Part shown: positions 12,996-22,525 of the stretch, in pieces
Layout of the letters: the number at the start of each line of letters is the position of its first letter
Numbering within the stretch: the first letter of the stretch is position 1
Source of the DNA: Methanobacteriota archaeon
GTDB lineage: Archaea; Thermoplasmatota; Thermoplasmata; SG8-5; DAIRED01
Assembly: GCA_043799545.1 (NCBI GenBank)
Contig: JAZDNO010000028.1
Coordinates: 1 to 25,046, forward strand
Length of the DNA stretch: 25,046 nucleotides
Direction: 5' to 3'
Program-made: the position numbers and the translations under genes
Notes under the pieces: generated by a model
Seen by the model: the letters and a program-made list of their open reading frames with translations, nothing else
Database searches by the model: none
Told to the model about the DNA's origin: nothing

Positions 12996-15914
12996 ATGTT
13001 CGCGAAGGCCGTCGCGCTGACGCTTGCGATATTCCTAGGCTTTCCAGCTCTTATCGGCGTGGCGTCTCCGTCGGACACAGGCGCTCCAGCATCCGTCGAG
13101 TGCGCGCCCGTCCAGGCCGCGGCGGCGAACTTCTCCGCCGAGGCCGAGATACGGACTATACTGTCAGTGATTGACCAGCCATTCCTGTCTGGCTACGTCC
13201 AGACGCTTCAGGACTTCGGCACACGATACGCCTATACGCCGTTTTGCATGGATGCCGCGAAGTACATCGAAGGGGAGTTCATCGGGTGCGGTCTCGAGAC
13301 GAGCGTCCAGGACATGGAATACATGGGCCATAGGATAAGGAACGTCGTGGGGGTGCTGCCGGGAACTGGCTCCGCTGCCGGCGAAACCGTGATAGTTTGC
13401 GCCCATTACGACTCTTACTCCGAGATGTTATATTGGTCCGCGCCAGGAGCCGACGACGACGCCTCCGGACCCGCGGGGGTCCTTGCTGCCGCAAGGCTTC
13501 TGGTGGGCATGCAGTTCAACCGCACCATCAAATTCATAGCGTTCGGAGGGGAGGAGCTGGGCCTGGTCGGGAGCGATTATTACTCCGAGCTGGCGTGGTC
13601 TTCGGGCGAATCCATCGCCGGAGTCCTGAACATGGATATGATTTCACACAACCACGATCTCCACACGATAGACGTTTACACGGATGACAATTCGGCCGCG
13701 CTCGCCTCGCGCTACCACGACATCTGGGACAAGTACAAGGACATCATCGGCGACCCAGAGCCGGCGGTCATCAACGAACCGAATGCGGGATGGAGCGACC
13801 ACGCGCCCTTCTGGCAGCGGGGCTTCCAGGCACTATGCATCATCGAAACTGATTTCAGCGACCACTACCACACGACGGACGATACGATTGCCACGATAAA
13901 CATGACGTACATGCAGGGGGCGTTCAGGAACGCTGTTGCTGCGGCTTGTGAGATTGCCGAGATGAGCGCCGGGGATTCCACGCCGCCCGCGGTCTCCGCG
14001 CCGTCGCCAGCGCCGGATTCTGCCGGCAACTCCACCCCGGTGATTTCCGTTGGATTCTTCGACGCTTCGGGCGTCAACGCCAGCTCGTGCAAGCTCTACG
14101 TGAACGGCTACAGGGTGATGTGCGATTTGGCTCCCGCGCCCCTGGGGTACACCCTGTCTTACTGGCACGACGGCGGCTTCCAGAGCGGGTCCACGGTCAG
14201 GTGCAAGGCGATGGCATCCGATGCTGGCGGGCACGGGGCTGTCTTCTGGTGGAACTTCACGGTGGACACGACCCCGCCTCTCCCCCCGGAGACTGCCAAC
14301 GCGAGGTTCCTGGCCGTCGAGCCCGACAAGGCCGACGCCGTCTTGACAGCGGGGCCGGGATTCGAGGATTCGACCGGCGTGGCTTCGCCTTCCGTGCTTT
14401 ACGCCGGCGGTGAGTTCAGGCTGTGGTACACCGGCCTTCAGGAAGGGGTATTCAGGCGGATAATGGCTGCGAGCTCCTGCGACGGCTTTTCATGGCAGAA
14501 ACAGGGCGTGGTCTTAGACGTCGGGACGGCGGGGGAGCCTGACTACAGAGGCGCCACCGATTGCTCGGTCATCCTCGACGGAACATACAAGATGTGGTAC
14601 ACGGGGCACGACGTGGATGTCACTCGGGTTCTGTACGCAGAATCGCCCGACGGAGTTGTGTGGACGAAGCTTGGAATCGCAATCGCCAATGGCACGGGCC
14701 GCGAGCCAGATTCGTGGGGGGCCTCCTCTCCCACGGTGCTCGCCCGGAACGGAAGCTACGTCATGTGGTACACGGGATGGGACGGCGTCGAGTGGCGCGT
14801 GATGAGGGCGACGTCGGCGGACGGGCTGACCTGGGTCAAAGATGGCGTGGCGCTCTCCCGAGGCGGTTTCAATGACAGGGACAGGATGGGGGCTTCGGAC
14901 CCCGACGTTTCGATAATCGACGGCGAGTACGTCATGAGGTACACGGCCACCGAGGACATGTCGGTCAAGAGCATTCTGGAGGCCCGTTCAGTCGATGGAA
15001 TCTCTTGGATGCGCACTGGCGCGCACATCATGCCCGGGATGCCGTGGGAAGCCGATTCGAAGTACGTCCGCGCCTCCAGCGCGGTAGTGGTCGACGGCAT
15101 CGAATACACGTTTTACACGGGCAAGGGCGATCCCTACGAGGAGGTCATTTTCATTGCGTTGAGGGAGATGCAGACCCTGAAAAACGAGCTTGTTCTAGAA
15201 TGGTGCCCGTCCGCCTCATCCGACGTAACTGGCTATTCGGTCCGCTTGGCGGAGGATTGGGCGGAACTCCAAAGCGGTTCGGGAACGGTCTACAGGGCGC
15301 CGGGAACATATCTCGTGCTGCCGTATGCCGGCGTCGCCAACCTTTCCGGGGCATTCGCCAAAATAACTGTCTGGGACGTCGCCGGCAACTCGGCGGAGAC
15401 TTGGTACGCCATCGGCAAGACGTCGATGATGATGGAATTCGAGTGGGAGCTCGTGTCATGCCCGTACGCGGCGGAAGGCACAGGCATCGCGCAGGCGCTG
15501 GATACCCTGGTGTGGGATTACGCAATGGCGTATTCCGGTAACCCTGGCGACACCTGGCAAACAAACCATTATTTGCGCGCCGACGACCTGGACGACCTGA
15601 AAGTCATCGGGCCCGGGATGGGGCTGTGGCTTCAGGCGCAGACGGGCCAGTATCTGGCGACGTGCGGAATCGTGCAGAACATGACAATCCAGCTGCGGAC
15701 GGGCTGGAACCTTGTCTCGTACCCTCATCCATACGATATGACCGCGGCAGCTGTCGCGGCGGAAATCGGGCCGGCCTGCCAGGCCATCGAGGCCTTCGAT
15801 TATGCATTGGAATACATGACAGATGTTCTGGAGCCGTACGAGGCGATGGCCCCCGGCAGGGGGTACTGGGTGAAGGTCAGTGCGGACACCGCCTGGACGG
15901 CTGTGAATTACTAG
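12996..15914 (+). CDS. Secreted multidomain M28 metallopeptidase with Ig-like, five-bladed beta-propeller and C-terminal repeat domains
   Basis: Signal peptide (MFAKAVALTLAIFLG). Full M28 ligand set AHYDS, GADDDASG, GEELGL, NMDMI and SDHAPF. Five P-x-V...Y-x-MWYTG...S-x-DG-x-x-W repeats. Paired C-terminal W-x-LVS-x-P and PG-x-G-x-W motifs. Confidence 0.85.
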   Translation: MFAKAVALTLAIFLGFPALIGVASPSDTGAPASVECAPVQAAAANFSAEAEIRTILSVIDQPFLSGYVQTLQDFGTRYAYTPFCMDAAKYIEGEFIGCGLETSVQDMEYMGHRIRNVVGVLPGTGSAAGETVIVCAHYDSYSEMLYWSAPGADDDASGPAGVLAAARLLVGMQFNRTIKFIAFGGEELGLVGSDYYSELAWSSGESIAGVLNMDMISHNHDLHTIDVYTDDNSAALASRYHDIWDKYKDIIGDPEPAVINEPNAGWSDHAPFWQRGFQALCIIETDFSDHYHTTDDTIATINMTYMQGAFRNAVAAACEIAEMSAGDSTPPAVSAPSPAPDSAGNSTPVISVGFFDASGVNASSCKLYVNGYRVMCDLAPAPLGYTLSYWHDGGFQSGSTVRCKAMASDAGGHGAVFWWNFTVDTTPPLPPETANARFLAVEPDKADAVLTAGPGFEDSTGVASPSVLYAGGEFRLWYTGLQEGVFRRIMAASSCDGFSWQKQGVVLDVGTAGEPDYRGATDCSVILDGTYKMWYTGHDVDVTRVLYAESPDGVVWTKLGIAIANGTGREPDSWGASSPTVLARNGSYVMWYTGWDGVEWRVMRATSADGLTWVKDGVALSRGGFNDRDRMGASDPDVSIIDGEYVMRYTATEDMSVKSILEARSVDGISWMRTGAHIMPGMPWEADSKYVRASSAVVVDGIEYTFYTGKGDPYEEVIFIALREMQTLKNELVLEWCPSASSDVTGYSVRLAEDWAELQSGSGTVYRAPGTYLVLPYAGVANLSGAFAKITVWDVAGNSAETWYAIGKTSMMMEFEWELVSCPYAAEGTGIAQALDTLVWDYAMAYSGNPGDTWQTNHYLRADDLDDLKVIGPGMGLWLQAQTGQYLATCGIVQNMTIQLRTGWNLVSYPHPYDMTAAAVAAEIGPACQAIEAFDYALEYMTDVLEPYEAMAPGRGYWVKVSADTAWTAVNY

Positions 15915-15968
15915 AGGGGAACCATTTCGCTTGTTTTCGGGTATCAAGATCCGGTCCACGAGCCCTAC

Positions 15969-15980
15969 AAAACTATATTA
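15969..15980 (+). promoter_or_regulatory. Putative BRE/TATA promoter for the structured leader plus tRNA-Gly transcript
   Basis: AAAAC-TATATTA predicts a start near 16000. No well-spaced TATA is visible directly upstream of the tRNA, where -25 to -30 is GC-rich. Confidence 0.5.
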
Positions 15981-16002
15981 TCGTGATGGCAAATGCGGTG
16001 TA

Positions 16003-16172
16003 AAAGCATTGACATGCAGAGGCGGGTGTAACGAGGGTATGAAAGCCAACCAGGAAGCCTACCCGAGCGAACCCGCGCGCAGCCTGATGCCCTGGCACAG
16101 GAGCGGATGTAGTGAGGGAAAGAAAGCCTCATTGGTGTCTTTCCCGAGCGAACCCGCGCGCATAAACGCTTT
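16003..16172 (+). ncRNA. Candidate uncharacterised structured RNA or tRNA leader
   Basis: Predicted by hand: closing helices AAAGC/GCTTT and ATGC/GCAT enclose two k-turn arms and a middle hairpin (16083-16101). Lies between a TATA box and tRNA-Gly. Confidence 0.5.
16022..16162 (+). repeat. Two tandem 60-nt structured units (16022-16081 and 16103-16162, period 81 bp), each a hairpin with a predicted kink-turn
   Basis: Ungapped alignment 45/60 identical; terminal 20-mer CCCGAGCGAACCCGCGCGCA identical. Conserved stems with one compensatory pair (T-A versus A-T). Confidence 0.8.
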
Positions 16173-16184
16173 AATTAGCAAAGC

Positions 16185-16256
16185 GCGGGTGTAATCTAGT
16201 GGTTAGGATTTCAGCCTTCCAAGCTGAACACTCGGGTTCGAATCCCGACACCCGCA
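16185..16256 (+). tRNA. tRNA-Gly (anticodon TCC), intronless, CCA not encoded
   Basis: Cloverleaf: acceptor GCGGGTG/CACCCGC, D arm ATCT/GGAT, anticodon arm TCAGC-CTTCCAA-GCTGA, 4-nt variable loop, T arm TCGGG-TTCGAAT-CCCGA, discriminator A. Confidence 0.97.
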
Positions 16257-16323
16257 TGGAATTGTTTTCTCAGCAGAGGGTGGAGGAACAAGGACCTTCA
16301 CAAACGTTCGACGCTGGTCCGGG

Positions 16324-16414
16324 TCCCGACACCCGCATTTTAGCACATTTAGCTACGACAAATTTATACGCCGCGCTTCGCGCGGCTGGCCCGCCTTCGG
16401 CGGTCCCGACACCC
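16324..16414 (+). repeat. Two downstream copies of the tRNA-Gly 3' end (att-like scars)
   Basis: TCCCGACACCCGCAT at 16243-16257 is repeated exactly at 16324-16338; TCCCGACACCC recurs at 16404-16414. Spacing 81 and 80 bp. Confidence 0.8.
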
Positions 16415-16561
16415 CTATGCTAGAGCATCTCTCAAAGGGATTTAGTACCCAGGCTGGGAGTCGAGCCGTATCTGGCTTGGAATCAGTTTTAATAGTTCTT
16501 TTCAAGCCAATGGAAGCAAATTTGTTGGAAGTGGGGAATCCCTCGTGCAGCCAACGCTACA

Positions 16562-16569
16562 TATTTATA
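16562..16569 (+). promoter_or_regulatory. TATA box of the SRP RNA gene
   Basis: TATTTATA about 20-25 nt upstream of the predicted SRP 5' end. Confidence 0.65.
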
Positions 16570-16587
16570 CCGCCAACCGTTAGTCGA

Positions 16588-16899
16588 GGCGCTAGGCTCG
16601 ACCGGGGGGTTCGGCGTCCCCTTTTACACCAAAATCGTCGTCAGTGGGGGTGACAGCTGGATGCGGCGCGCCAGTCCCGTGCGGGTCCTGCGCATGACCG
16701 TGAGGCCTTGTCCTGCGGGGCGGGTGGCGGCATCGCGGCGCAGCCGGAGGGCGGCGCTCTTTGCCATGGTCGCGGGGAACGGGTCAGGCCCTGAAGGGAG
16801 CAGCCTAACCGCGGATTACCCACGCTCGCGGGGTAGCGGGACCGAGAAGTGCGCAGACCAATCCGTGCGAAGGCTGGTCGACAAGTTCAGCGGCCTAGT
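16588..16899 (+). ncRNA. ffs: Archaeal signal recognition particle (7S) RNA
   Basis: 5' GCTAGGC...CCGGGGGGTTCGGCGTCCCC Alu-domain signature; helix 6 CC-GGAG-GG tetraloop; helix 8 CAGG-CCC-TGAA-GGG-AGCAG; helix 1 GCTAGGC/GCCTAGT; helix 2 TCGACC/GGTCGA; about 312 nt. Ends approximate. Confidence 0.9.
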
Positions 16900-16900
16900 A

Positions 16901-16916: not shown

Positions 16917-17027
16917 AGGCCGCTGAAAGGCCTAGCGGTCTCCGTCATTTTCCGAACAAGGAGCTAGGCCGGCTCCACGGCAAGGACTACATGCACTCAG
17001 TCTTGCCGTGGCCGAAGCAACACGGAA

Positions 17028-18439: not shown

Positions 18440-21400
18440 TTAATCCTTTTCTTCCGATATCACGACTAGGCAGTTCTTCTCCCCGTCCGCCATGCTCTTT
18501 TTGAGCTGAACGTCGAACGGCTTTTTCGCGCGGGACGCGAATCTCCAGGCAATCCCCCTGCAGAGGACGCAGAGGAGGATGTTGCGGCTCTTCTGGTTGT
18601 CCCACGGGCATCCGCTGATGCTCACCGAGCATGTCGCCGGGCAGGGACGCTTGTTTGCCTTGCACGCCTCCTCGTCGGGGCACACGAGCATAGATTTGCC
18701 GCCCAGGTCGGCCAGCACGCTGATGTATGCGCCGGCGACTTCCTGGGCCGTCTGAGATGACATTTCCACTGGGTACTTGGCCAGCAGGACGGTGTCGAGG
18801 CGCTCCGACAGCTTATCAACCAGGTCGGCCCGCCCCCCCTTGTCCATGGAGCCGAGCATTACGGGAACGATGTCGGTTATGACCGACATCAGCTTGAACT
18901 GGGCTTCTAGGACTTGGCGCTGGACATCCTCCGATTGGCGCTTCTTGACCTCGGTGATGTCCTTGACGATTCCGACGATGAAGAGGTCGTGGCCGAGCAT
19001 GTACTCTGAAATCGATATCTCCGCGTCGAAAGTGCTGCCGTCCTTGCGCAACGCCTTGAACTGGTACCTGTTCGGGGCGTGCTCGCCGGACTCCCTGGCT
19101 TGCGCGTAGGTCGCCATGCGCTCCCTGTCTTCAGGAGCGATTGTGTCCCCGGCGCACTTGCCCACGATCTCCTCGACGGTCCTGAACCCGTACATGCTAG
19201 CGAAGGAAGGGTTGACGTATGCGAACCGGCCCTTGCTCTCGACACCGATGCCGTCGATGGACGCATGGAACAGCGCCTTCAATCTCTCCTCGGAGCTCCG
19301 GACATTCTCCTCTGCCGCCTTCCTTTCCGTCACCTCGCGCACGACGGCCACCGCACCCCGGTAACGGCCGCTTTCCATGGTCGGCGAGAGCTTGGCCACG
19401 TACCATCTTCTTGTTTCGCCGAAATCGAGCCAGTATTCATACTCCGAAACCGAGCCGCTCCTGGCTCTTTCAAGGGCGTCCGCGGTCAGTTTCGAAGCCT
19501 GGGGCGGCAGTATGTCCGAGTACAGCTTTCCGTTGAAATAATCTGGCTCGGCGTACAGGTCATCTCTGTTCGAAGCGTGGTAGAAATTGAATCTCCCCTC
19601 CGTGTCGAAGCCGAAGACCAGATCGTCCATCGAGCTCATTATGTTGTGGAGTTTCGTCTCGGAGGCGACGAGTTCGCTCTCTGTCTTCTTGCGCTTGGTG
19701 ATGTCCCTCACCATCGCCAGGAGGTATTCCTTTGCGTTGAACCTTACCAGATTGAGGCTGACCTCGGCGTCGAAAAGCGAGCCGTCGGGGCAGACATGCA
19801 TCCATTCGAAGAACTGCGGCTTTCCAGAGAACGCAGTCTGAATGAGCTCTTTGGCTTTCTCGTCTGAAGCCCTCCCGTCCGGCTGCCTGGGCGGCGAGAA
19901 GTTGTAGGGCTGCTGGCCGATAATCTGCTCCCGTGTACACTTGAACATAGCGAGCGTCTTGAGGTTGCAGTCCACGAATGTGTTTCCGTCCATGAGGAAG
20001 ATGGCGTCGTGCGCCATGTCGAAGAGGGTCTTGTACTTCGTCTCGCTCTCGTAAAGCATCGCCTCGGCGTCTTTGCGCTCGCTGAGGTTTCTGATAATCA
20101 GCATGTCCGCCGGCTTTCCAAGGTACTGGATGACTCCGGCGTTTACCTCCACTGGCAATATCGATCCGTCCGGGCGCTTGAGCTTGGTCTCGTATATCGA
20201 TGGGGCCGGCTCCCCCCTCATCCTGCGGGCGTACATATCCGCAATCTTGGGCTTTTCCTCGTCCGAGATTGCCTCAAGGATGCTCGTGTTGTATGCGTCT
20301 TCGCCTTTGTATCCAGTCATGCGCAAGGCGCTCTCGTTGAAGAATACGGGTTTTTCGTTCTGGACGATTACGATTCCATCCCTCGCCCTCTCGACCAGAT
20401 TGCGGTATTTTTCCTCACCCTCGCGCAGCGCCTCCTCGACCTTTTTACTCTCGGTCACATCCCTTACTATGCCCAGTATGGCGCGCACCTTGCCATCGGC
20501 GCCTTTCAACAGAGCGCTGCTGACCTCGCCATCGTAGCGGGTCCCGTCCTTTCGCAGGAGCGTGTAATAAGTGACGAGATGGGTCTCTGACTTCAGCAGC
20601 CTTGACAAATCCTCGAAGGCCCGTTCGTTGTCCTCTGGCGCTATCAGCTCCATGAAGTTTTTCCCGGCGACCTCATCCATCGATTCGTAGCCGCTGATTT
20701 CCAGCGCCCTATGGGAAGCATACGTCAGCCTGCCGTTCAGGTCGCTGATGACGACCGCCTCCGGCATCATCCTCAGTATGTTTCTCTGGAGGTCCTCCGC
20801 CTGCGAAAGCTCCGCGCTCACGCGCTTGAGCTGGCTGATGTCGGTGATTATGCCGAGGATGGCGGGTTCGCCCTCGTATCTGATGGGCTTCGAGTTGATG
20901 AGAACCTCGAACCTGCGCTTGTCTTTTGTGAGCAGCGTGTACTCATAAGGGGCGCTCTCAATGCCATCGAAGCGTTTCTGCGCGTTCTCACGGACCCTTT
21001 TCCGGTCCTCCGGCGCTACGAGGCTCAGGAAGTCGAAACCTTCTGCGTAGAATTCGTCGGGCGCGTAGCCCATGGTCTCGGCGCACTTCCTGTTGGCGTA
21101 GACGACCTTCCCCAAGCGGTTGATGAAAATCATGTTTGGCGAGTTGTCGGCCAGCTCGCGGAACTTTGCCTCGCTCTCCTCCAGCGCCTTCTGGGACTTC
21201 TTCCGCTGCGTTACGTCGATGTTGAACTCGGCGACGACCCACTCGCCGTCATCGCCCCTGAACGGAATTGTGTGCACCTCGATGTGCCTGTCCTCTTTTA
21301 TCAGGTACTCCTCGGAAATGGTTGTCTTCTTGGTATCGAGGGCGGTCTTGATTGCGCAGGTATCGCATGGAGCGAATGTGCCCATGAAGTAGTCGTGGCA

Positions 21401-22525
21401 CTTCTTGCCCCTGTAATCCCCGAGGGTATTGGCCCACGCCGGGTCGACGTAGATCACGTTGTAATCGGCATCGACGATGTCGAACCCCGTGTGCGTGGCG
21501 CCCAGGATGTACTCCAGCCGGTCCTTTACAACCTTCAGCTCTTCGTTCACCCGCTGGCGTTCCGCCATCTCTTCCTTCAGCTTGGCCGTCCGCTTCTCGA
21601 CCAGCTCCTCCAGATGCTCGCGGTACTTCGAGATTTCTGCCTCGCTCGCCTTGAGGTCCGCGATGTCGTTCGCGACGCAAAGAATCGAAACGACCTTGCC
21701 GTTCTTGTCGTGGATGGGCGTCGCGCTGAGCAGCACCGGTACGTAGGCTCCGCATTTGGTCAGCACCCTGTACTCGATGTTGTGCATCCCCTTGCCCCGG
21801 GAGACGCTCGAGACCTGGCGGTGCGCCCTGTCGACGTCGTCCTCGTGGATGACGGTGAAGAAGTTTATGCTGTGCGCCTCCTGCATCGAGTATCCGAACA
21901 CGTTCTGGAACGTGCTGTTCGCGAAGATGAGGCTCCCCTTGAGGTCGAGCGTGAACATGGCGATGGAAGGGGTGTCCGCGAGCTGCCTGTACTTCTCCTC
22001 GGAAGCCTTCAGGTCGTCCTCGATTTTCTTCCTCTGGGTGATATCCTCGACGAGGCCTAATACGTAGAACGTCTCCCCCACAACGATTAGGGAATAGTGC
22101 ATCTCGAGGTTCCGGTACTTTCCATCGGAGCCCATGATGCGGACATCGCAGCTCGAGTTTTCCCCCTGGATGGTCCTCATCACAGTCTCGTGGGACTTCA
22201 CCCTGTCGTCTGGGTGGACGTAGCCTCCGGCCCTCTTGCCGACCCATTGCTTCGGGTCGTGGGAGAGTATCCTTCCAGAGGCTGGGTTTATAAGCACGTA
22301 CTTGAAGTCCTCGTCGATGAGGAACAGCCCCTCGTTCATGTTCTCCAGTATCGCATCCAGAATCTTCAGGCGCTCCGCGTCGCCTATCGGCATGGATGAG
22401 CCCGCCGTACCGTTCGCGTGCTCAGCCGGGCGCTCGCCGCTGAAGCTGGCATCGCGCTTGCCCGCCGCATCTGCGCTGGCCGCCTTCCCCCGTTTGACCA
22501 CAGCTTCCCCCTCGCTCCGGCTCAC
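18440..22525 (-). CDS. Cytoplasmic sensor with nine PAS domains and a C-terminal Cys-rich MetOD1/V4R-like domain; no kinase
   Basis: Nine PAS/PAC repeats ending in DIT/DVT-like motifs, with a coiled coil after PAS2. C-terminus GCPW...LCVLCRGI...GEKNCLVVI. No TM, H-box or HATPase motifs. GTG start overlaps the kaiC TGA (GTGA). Confidence 0.88.
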   Translation of the reverse strand: MSRSEGEAVVKRGKAASADAAGKRDASFSGERPAEHANGTAGSSMPIGDAERLKILDAILENMNEGLFLIDEDFKYVLINPASGRILSHDPKQWVGKRAGGYVHPDDRVKSHETVMRTIQGENSSCDVRIMGSDGKYRNLEMHYSLIVVGETFYVLGLVEDITQRKKIEDDLKASEEKYRQLADTPSIAMFTLDLKGSLIFANSTFQNVFGYSMQEAHSINFFTVIHEDDVDRAHRQVSSVSRGKGMHNIEYRVLTKCGAYVPVLLSATPIHDKNGKVVSILCVANDIADLKASEAEISKYREHLEELVEKRTAKLKEEMAERQRVNEELKVVKDRLEYILGATHTGFDIVDADYNVIYVDPAWANTLGDYRGKKCHDYFMGTFAPCDTCAIKTALDTKKTTISEEYLIKEDRHIEVHTIPFRGDDGEWVVAEFNIDVTQRKKSQKALEESEAKFRELADNSPNMIFINRLGKVVYANRKCAETMGYAPDEFYAEGFDFLSLVAPEDRKRVRENAQKRFDGIESAPYEYTLLTKDKRRFEVLINSKPIRYEGEPAILGIITDISQLKRVSAELSQAEDLQRNILRMMPEAVVISDLNGRLTYASHRALEISGYESMDEVAGKNFMELIAPEDNERAFEDLSRLLKSETHLVTYYTLLRKDGTRYDGEVSSALLKGADGKVRAILGIVRDVTESKKVEEALREGEEKYRNLVERARDGIVIVQNEKPVFFNESALRMTGYKGEDAYNTSILEAISDEEKPKIADMYARRMRGEPAPSIYETKLKRPDGSILPVEVNAGVIQYLGKPADMLIIRNLSERKDAEAMLYESETKYKTLFDMAHDAIFLMDGNTFVDCNLKTLAMFKCTREQIIGQQPYNFSPPRQPDGRASDEKAKELIQTAFSGKPQFFEWMHVCPDGSLFDAEVSLNLVRFNAKEYLLAMVRDITKRKKTESELVASETKLHNIMSSMDDLVFGFDTEGRFNFYHASNRDDLYAEPDYFNGKLYSDILPPQASKLTADALERARSGSVSEYEYWLDFGETRRWYVAKLSPTMESGRYRGAVAVVREVTERKAAEENVRSSEERLKALFHASIDGIGVESKGRFAYVNPSFASMYGFRTVEEIVGKCAGDTIAPEDRERMATYAQARESGEHAPNRYQFKALRKDGSTFDAEISISEYMLGHDLFIVGIVKDITEVKKRQSEDVQRQVLEAQFKLMSVITDIVPVMLGSMDKGGRADLVDKLSERLDTVLLAKYPVEMSSQTAQEVAGAYISVLADLGGKSMLVCPDEEACKANKRPCPATCSVSISGCPWDNQKSRNILLCVLCRGIAWRFASRAKKPFDVQLKKSMADGEKNCLVVISEEKD

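Follow-up and report, generated by a model that had tools for sequence, protein, structure and literature searches.

The window considered here, the whole 25,046-nt stretch of thermoplasmatotal DNA that was analysed, carries a tRNA-Gly(UCC) gene with short repeated elements on both of its sides, followed by an archaeal SRP RNA gene (Table 1). Directly upstream of tRNA-Gly(UCC) lie two 60-nt units, A (16022-16081) and B (16103-16162), in tandem with a period of 81 nt. This period continues 3' of the tRNA gene in the form of two partial copies of the tRNA 3' end, the first of which is a 15-nt copy at 16324-16338, 81 nt past the original. Further in the same direction, a third piece at 16440-16520 comprises a hairpin pair resembling a cassette seen behind the tRNA-Gln, Arg, Leu, Val, and Gly(GCC) genes elsewhere in the genome, and the sequence just before it (16420-16453) is near-identical in the only sequenced congener. 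Behind the SRP RNA gene, too, a T-rich stretch gives way to the reverse complement (16917-16927) of the gene's final 11 nt (16886-16896), after which two hairpins form a cassette (about 16928-17012) of the same design as those behind many tRNA genes here. The two neighbouring protein genes show no evident link to the units. Coding across the units themselves was considered and rejected, the open reading frames there being mechanical ones within a region of tRNA-derived repeats.

Table 1. Coordinates of the features discussed; positions are those of the window unless a contig (C) of this genome (G000) or a locus (L) of genome G003 is named.
Feature	Position	Strand	Remarks
Neighbour gene	12996-15914	+	972 aa; M28 peptidase domain; weak sub-threshold GH130 match
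BRE/TATA-like box	15970-15981 (TATA-like 15974-15981)	+	Likely promoter of a unit A-unit B-tRNA-Gly transcript
AT-rich leader ahead of unit A	16003-16021	+	4-bp hairpin (16006-16017); MFE fold
AT-rich boxes	16003-16019 and 16163-16182
Unit A hairpin	16022-16076	+	Covariance model 68 bits, E 5e-16
Unit A 5' arm	16022-16031	+	Same as tRNA-Gly(UCC) positions 1-10
Unit A tandem G·A pairs	16033-16034 with 16065-16066	+
Unit A 3' arm	16071-16076	+	Complement of 5' arm
Linker hairpin between units A and B	16083-16101	+	Paired in whole-region MFE fold
Unit B hairpin	16103-16157	+	Covariance model 67 bits
Unit B 5' arm			One mismatch to tRNA (A at 16107); positions 7-12 match tRNA-Gly(GCC)
Unit B tandem G·A pairs	16114-16115 with 16146-16147	+
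AT-rich box and small hairpin, unit B to tRNA	16163-16184	+
tRNA-Gly(UCC)	16185-16256	+	ARAGORN; Rfam RF00005, 70 bits
First downstream module	16278-16338	+	Ends in 15-nt direct copy of tRNA 3' end
Second downstream module	16370-16415	+	Two GC hairpins and 14-nt tRNA 3'-end copy (16402-16415)
Archaeal SRP RNA	16590-16900		Rfam
Neighbour gene	18440-22525	-	1361 aa; at least 7 PAS domains; methanogen output domain 1
Three-copy ~90-nt repeat	C11:6128-6174, C25:22017-22063, C29:8466-8512		Genome G000
Tandem core array	L031 1335-1399, 1501-1567, 1677-1742		Genome G003
Tandem core array	L023 1409-1474, 1501-1566		Genome G003

Tandem units in a probable pre-tRNA leader

The repeat between the two units extends slightly beyond their 5' ends, with a repeat finder delimiting spans of 16017-16081 and 16098-16162 (74% identity over 65 nt, gap-free, 81 nt from start to start). 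Both units begin with a copy of the tRNA-Gly 5' end (the first 9-12 nt of a tRNA-Gly), which at the start of unit A is an exact 10-nt repeat shared by 16022 and 16185, and in each the 3' arm comprises six bases complementary to this copied end. Units A and B are, as predicted from their sequence, hairpins closed by a replica of the tRNA-Gly acceptor stem. When folded alone with ViennaRNA, both form a hairpin with a basal and an apical stem, with minimum free energies (MFE) of -21.5 kcal/mol (z -2.1) for unit A and -26.5 kcal/mol (z -3.75) for unit B. The folds are imperfect in two places: an A·C mismatch in the outer stem of unit B and a broken pair between unit positions 10 and 47 in unit A. 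Covariance-model matches to the units reach E-values of about 1e-14 to 1e-18, far past chance, although the scores of 68 and 67 bits come from a model (R2) that had units A and B among the ten sequences used to build it.

Much of this agrees with the initial annotation of the locus, which had described two gap-free 60-nt repeats 81 bp apart, each folding into a basal and an apical stem, a compensatory T-A to A-T change in the apical stem, and a hairpin linking the units at 16083-16101; the repeats, the two stems, and the compensatory change are all present, and the linker hairpin appears in the fold of the whole region. The long-range closure also proposed there, pairing AAAGC with GCTTT and ATGC with GCAT, goes unused in the MFE fold of the whole leader, where a local GCAU...AUGC hairpin forms instead.

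The arrangement of AT-rich sequence around the units suggests where transcription begins. At tRNA genes of this genome that lack modules, an AT box is centred 28-36 nt before the mature 5' end, whereas the box nearest to tRNA-Gly(UCC), as to tRNA-Gly(GCC), is centred at -11.5, a distance too short for it to serve that gene. The TATA-like box at 15974-15981, centred about 46 nt ahead of unit A, is the sole one at promoter distance, and no T5 run occurs between this box and tRNA-Gly. Given that the nearest box is too close, that the next is the one at 15974-15981, and that no T5 run intervenes, the likeliest primary transcript would start near 16003 and span unit A, unit B, and the tRNA, which probably places both units within the pre-tRNA-Gly leader. 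The TATA element at 15974 and the co-transcription with tRNA-Gly suggested in the initial annotation are thus upheld, the former as a box found at promoter distance and the latter as probable.

AT-rich boxes occur ahead of every unit and of the tRNA, and among 28 core-aligned modules from across the family described below, most copies carry an AT-rich BRE/TATA-like stretch 18-32 nt before the first G of the GA, on the module strand. This spacing would be promoter-like for a start inside the module; at ~12 nt before tRNA-Gly, the start would fall inside the tRNA. In the MFE fold of 16000-16260, the 5' arm of unit A pairs with the 3' acceptor strand of the tRNA and displaces the tRNA's own 5' strand, so the mimicry is thermodynamically real, whatever its use, and the units could, as modelled, compete with tRNA folding.

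The tandem G·A motif and curated RNA families

Each unit carries GA on both strands, at unit positions 12-13 and 44-45, beside a G-C helix. These dinucleotides are invariant in an alignment of ten sequences and nearly so in 30 copies, which agrees, judged at the level of sequence only, with the tandem G-A/A-G motif to which the initial annotation had drawn attention. From this motif and a 3-nt bulge, it had read each unit as a genuine kink-turn bound by L7Ae, the two forming a ~170-nt ribonucleoprotein (RNP) in the pre-tRNA leader. A simple kink-turn requires a Watson-Crick C helix, a 3-nt bulge, and tandem G·A pairs opening a second helix, with the opposite strand passing from its GA directly into the C helix. 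The units resemble kink-turns of the Kt-7, box C/D, and U4 type (bound by L7Ae/15.5K) in having tandem GA by a G-C helix and an asymmetric loop nearby, but they are without a 3-nt bulge beside the G·A pairs; their asymmetric loop (3 + 2) lies two base pairs below, with tRNA positions 7-9 forming its 5' side.

Two of the positions assigned to the 3-nt bulge are in fact paired, both in the ViennaRNA folds, which join position 11 (unit A) or positions 10-11 (unit B) across the strands in a continuous-helix register, and in the covariation of the family. In the 30-row model alignment, positions 10 and 47 form CG in 15 rows, UA in 12, GC in two, and another combination in one, while positions 11 and 46 form CG in 28 and UG in two. 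A hand-checked alignment of 11 rows gives UA 5, CG 3, and GC 1 for the former pair and CG 10 and UG 1 for the latter. In these same 11 rows, the C-stem pairs that a kink-turn register would need fail across the family, the first being GC in only two rows and other combinations in nine, and the second UG in six, CG in two, and other combinations in three. As positions 10 and 11 are base-paired family-wide, the tandem G·A pairs lie inside a continuous helix and the kink-turn register fails; read from these alignments, the motif is a symmetric CGAG/CGAG internal loop within one long helix.

It is through this family covariation that a kink-turn is excluded, and not by the sequences of units A and B alone: both have C at position 47, which makes the register (G7-C47, U8·G46) sterically possible there, permitting a two-pair C stem (G-C, U·G) with a 3-nt bulge. 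L7Ae-family genes are present in the genome, as to our knowledge they are in all archaea, and their presence is uninformative for the kink-turn claim. Set against the invariant GA, most members of the family are antisense to their tRNA, where tRNA-sense RNA would have C·U rather than G·A. Taken with the absence of any Rfam match even at an E-value of 10, we regard a kink-turn in each unit as very unlikely, and the idea of a new L7Ae-bound kink-turn RNP should be dropped. The part of the initial interpretation that stands is a conserved, structured element probably co-transcribed with tRNA-Gly; the kink-turn and L7Ae identity does not.

The proposal that the element fits no curated RNA family held in all searches. 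Rfam 15 at gathering score returned only the tRNA and the SRP RNA in the window, leaving the units unmatched, and with E-values of up to 10 over 15900-16600, the units were overlapped solely by a 10-bit chance match on the opposite strand. No covariance-model match to box C/D, H/ACA, or other curated families was found on the units, nor were C/D boxes. A glycine-specific, T-box-like regulator was also considered and rejected, given that tRNA-Gly(CCC) is without a unit and that the core of the units also flanks Pro, Ala, Cys, Glu, Asp, and Phe genes.

A family of modules copying tRNA ends

Searching the organism's own assembly (2.06 Mb, 31 contigs), we found a second locus on contig C26 with two further units immediately ahead of tRNA-Gly(GCC), whose acceptor stem is identical; tRNA-Gly(CCC), which lacks a unit, has a different stem. 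A first covariance model was built from four glycine units and a broader model, R2, from ten copies, the latter being searched in 151 genomes of the class. The four-unit model identified one unit ahead of each of two tRNA-Gly genes in the only sequenced congener and, on the opposite strand, matches behind tRNA-Pro and tRNA-Glu in the congener and behind a tRNA-Gly in another family. With the broader model, 8-10 copies were found in each of genomes G000, G001, and G002, five in G003, and one each in G021 and G014. These six genomes belong to three families of one order; outside them, only four single matches occurred, in other families of the class, three of which were borderline. Core copies independent of the model in other genomes score 25-60 bits. 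The exact Gly-type pattern is rarer still: among 185,579 species genomes, it occurs in only one other, that of the congener (a Thermoplasmatota archaeon MAG), and in JGI metagenomes on two short contigs, one identical to the congener's locus and the other a new stem variant.

The conserved core of a module consists of an inner stem of 7-8 bp with a loop of roughly 15 nt, flanked on each strand by the word CGAG. The outer arms lie outside this core and are copies of whichever end of the neighbouring tRNA gene is nearer. Besides the upstream glycine units, the core lies antisense behind tRNA-Pro(GGG), Ala(GGC), and Cys in this genome. In the congener it follows Pro, Ala, Glu, and Asp genes, and two further families of the order have it behind Gly, Glu, Asp, Ala, and Phe, in nearly all cases on the opposite strand; the non-glycine copies are nearly all downstream of, and antisense to, their tRNA gene. 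In most antisense copies, the 5' arm (on the module strand) is the reverse complement of the last 10-13 nt of the tRNA, of which the 3' arm reproduces 6-9 nt. Upstream and downstream modules are therefore alike in one respect, namely that the arm closer to the tRNA is complementary to the adjacent tRNA end, which the distal arm copies. A sense upstream version built on the tRNA 5' end is made possible by the self-complementarity of the acceptor stem, in which the reverse complement of the 3' strand is the 5' strand. The arms also track differences in the tRNA between genomes, as seen for Asp in G001, G002, and G021 and for Gly in G002.

Units A and B show the CGAG words, the 7-8 bp stem, and tRNA-derived arms with the complementary arm proximal. 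The modules are a lineage-specific family of hairpins that copy tRNA ends, of which units A and B are an unusual upstream sense version, and we are confident that the two units belong to this family and are not kink-turns. The family is small, confined to one order of uncultured Thermoplasmatota, and apparently undescribed; literature searches on archaeal tRNA-linked repeats, archaeal RAYT/REPIN systems, and acceptor-stem mimics in leaders found no description of such modules.

Conservation and covariation in relatives, which the initial annotation had set as a check, were both found, the former with the covariance models and the latter in pair counts; its view of an unannotated, conserved, structured tandem element is borne out by the lack of an Rfam match and by compensatory changes in relatives. 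In the 30-row alignment, which was fitted to the model, 96% of cells in the model structure are standard pairs, compared to 72% in shuffles and 18-54% with the partners slid, and double-sided changes occur in 12 of 15 pairs. Covariation of the outer stem follows automatically from copying the tRNA, and the independent covariation is that of the inner stem and the 10-47 pair. Only five of 432 cells are G·U, and with stems so nearly pure in Watson-Crick pairs, counts of G·U against A·C do not tell which strand folds.

Comparison with the congener shows what has been kept at the locus itself. Unit B, with which the single upstream unit of the congener aligns, the AT-rich box, the tRNA, and the second downstream module are conserved, while the promoter region and the outer flanks are unalignable. 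The box at 16163-16184 is identical at 19 of 23 positions, and an A-to-G change in the congener's tRNA recurs in the 14-nt copy of the 3' end behind it. With one upstream unit compared to two here, the congener is also without the first downstream module and the linker hairpin, and this difference in number indicates that copy number turns over within the genus.

Copies of tRNA ends are common in the flanks of tRNA genes in this genome. Counting 8-mers with at most one mismatch in the flanks of all 40 tRNA genes, copies of a gene's own 5' end occur upstream of 15 (6.2 expected from non-cognate pairings) and copies of its own 3' end downstream of 14 (3.0 expected). Other types of upstream module are present on contigs C6, C10, C26, and C11 of G000. 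The tRNA-Thr(CGU), Thr(UGU), and Asn genes are each preceded by a copy of their own first 21 nt joined to a common conserved body. Ahead of tRNA-Glu(CUC) stand three hairpins, and ahead of Glu(UUC) a single one, in which the Glu acceptor stem closes an unrelated core. A separate repeat of ~90 nt with its own hairpin is present in three copies away from tRNA genes. In G003, the core occurs in tandem arrays with arms not derived from a tRNA, at a period of ~170 nt in locus L031, which lies downstream of tRNA-Gly(GCC), and of ~90 nt in locus L023.

Possible role and origin of the modules

Our best explanation, to which we assign a probability of roughly 0.55, is that a lineage-restricted hairpin module with a tRNA-end mimic role is present here in two tandem copies, units A and B. 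On this reading, a ~180-nt 5' leader containing both units would be transcribed ahead of tRNA-Gly(UCC) and presumably released by an RNase P cut at the tRNA. The tRNA-proximal arm of each module, antisense to the tRNA 5' strand, would be kept occupied by the distal copy, and the module would act within the precursor as a self-neutralised mimic of the tRNA end, serving as an insulating or processing structure. Recombination via short homology with tRNA ends may renew the family. That the role is exerted at the RNA level, in the precursor, is a more tentative part of this proposal, which we hold as possible rather than probable. The core is sense upstream but antisense downstream, with a tRNA-sense mismatch of G·A in the one case and C·U in the other, which would fit poorly with an RNA function exerted in the tRNA sense alone; the near absence of G·U suits a DNA-level palindrome, or copies of recent origin, as well as it suits an RNA; and two upstream units here against one in the congener is as would be expected of a mobile or dispensable element. 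The mismatch in unit B and the broken pair in unit A, which leave both copies imperfect, and the lack of a unit at tRNA-Gly(CCC) also count against the proposal.

A stronger form of the proposal appears doubtful to us, namely a maintained system in which hairpins replicating the terminal helix serve RNase P, tRNase Z, or the CCA enzyme as decoys or as signals for quality control or processing, or else give rise to small RNAs. In the small-RNA variant, RNAs would arise from the AT-rich, promoter-like box before each module, with a 5' arm antisense to the tRNA 3' strand. Were such a system real, it would be a new class of archaeal element controlling the maturation of tRNA, SRP RNA, and similar RNAs.

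The main competitor to a tRNA-end mimic is that the modules are selfish or recombination-driven DNA palindromes, REP- or MITE-like, with no gain to the host RNA. A non-autonomous core would land by stable-RNA genes with a fixed polarity and acquire inverted and direct copies of the target end, the hairpin mattering in single-stranded DNA. The flip of orientation with position, always with the tRNA-complementary arm proximal, would follow from such behaviour, as would the scarcity of G·U pairs, the variation in copy number between congeners, and the G003 arrays whose arms are not tRNA-derived. Y1 (IS200/IS605-type) transposase genes are also found in 16 of 22 genomes of the order (1-3 matches each), among them all seven high-quality ones, although presence across the order does not discriminate between the readings. 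Against this, no module adjoins any Y1 transposase or integrase gene in this genome (best E 0.14 with filters off), and no core lies near its three Y1 genes (within about 1.5 kb) or its four integrase genes. With about eight core copies per genome, the family is far below REP families in number, and its modules persist at the same tRNA genes (Ala, Asp) from one family to another, with arms that follow changes in the tRNA, arms which, at 9-13 nt, would seem too short for easy gene conversion. At the locus itself, unit and spacers have been retained between flanks too diverged to align. On balance, we consider the selfish origin somewhat unlikely. REP/REPIN elements and their RAYT proteins do share with the modules imperfect extragenic palindromes, conserved mismatches, and a Y1 gene in most genomes, but the modules are low in copy, strictly by stable-RNA genes, and have target-derived arms, and none flank Y1 genes.

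Far less probable, in our view, is that the units are decaying scars of tandem tRNA-Gly duplications or of attL/attR sites, with no maintained structure. Fragments of tRNA genes left by integration are common in archaea (PMC9897764, PMC3293823), three tyrosine integrase genes lie beside other tRNA genes in this genome, both ends are common to the units and tRNA-Gly, and the 81-nt period is near the length of a tRNA plus spacer. The interior of the units, however, is the conserved core common to modules at unrelated tRNA genes and not a degraded tRNA, and its stems show compensatory double changes, so that the shared core and covariation largely refute this reading. The copies are moreover only 9-12 nt long and paired with an inverted arm, which is not a product of integration, and no integrase or element lies between the repeats. 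The comparison with the attL/attR sites of tRNA-targeting tyrosine integrases of archaeal viruses and plasmids holds in that direct repeats of a tRNA end flank inserted DNA beside an intact tRNA. It fails in that the repeat here is 9-15 nt against about 40-50 for att, the insert is a gene-less 60-80 nt, no module lacks the inverted copy, and different families have modules at the same site. The 60-80 nt between the repeats contain no ORF family, and the integrases, located at other tRNA genes, have no module near them.

For hairpins that mimic tRNA ends, the nearest analogue appears to be the tRNA-linked repeats (TLRs) of E. coli, units of tRNA and rRNA operons that finish with 18-19 bp identical to the 3' end of the upstream gene (PMC8144298). 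Like the modules, TLRs (the tyrT 178-bp repeats and rtT, as well as rrA/rrB/rrF) are short, gene-less, often in tandem, and bear a copy of the end of the adjacent gene, and the downstream pieces in the window likewise copy a 3' end. In contrast, units A and B are upstream and copy 9-12 nt of the 5' end, with an inverted arm that locks the copy in a hairpin, and their conserved core is found antisense behind other tRNA genes as well; their sequences are unrelated to those of TLRs, and their host is an archaeon. Neither TLRs nor att duplications have an inverted arm, a shared core, or an upstream version. The t-elements of plant mitochondria offer a looser parallel, being acceptor-stem-like hairpins in precursors and, like the modules, possible targets of RNase P or RNase Z; t-elements lie beside mRNAs and resemble tRNAs in general, whereas each module lies beside a tRNA gene and copies that particular tRNA.

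Should the modules prove functional, they would reveal that tRNA and SRP RNA genes in one archaeal lineage are marked by hairpins reproducing the ends of the RNA itself, for which the only precedent so far is the unexplained tRNA-linked repeats of E. coli, and they would provide a handle on how the ends of archaeal precursors are protected, processed, or policed. If selfish, they would represent a rare miniature element that builds its arms from its target. In either case, annotators should expect tRNA-like fragments around the tRNA genes of these MAGs. As a separate observation, one Y1 transposase gene of this genome (C25:29957-30301; L055 1459-1914) lies directly before tRNA-Leu(GAG) (L055 about 2041-2126), with a degenerate partial copy of that tRNA between the two genes.
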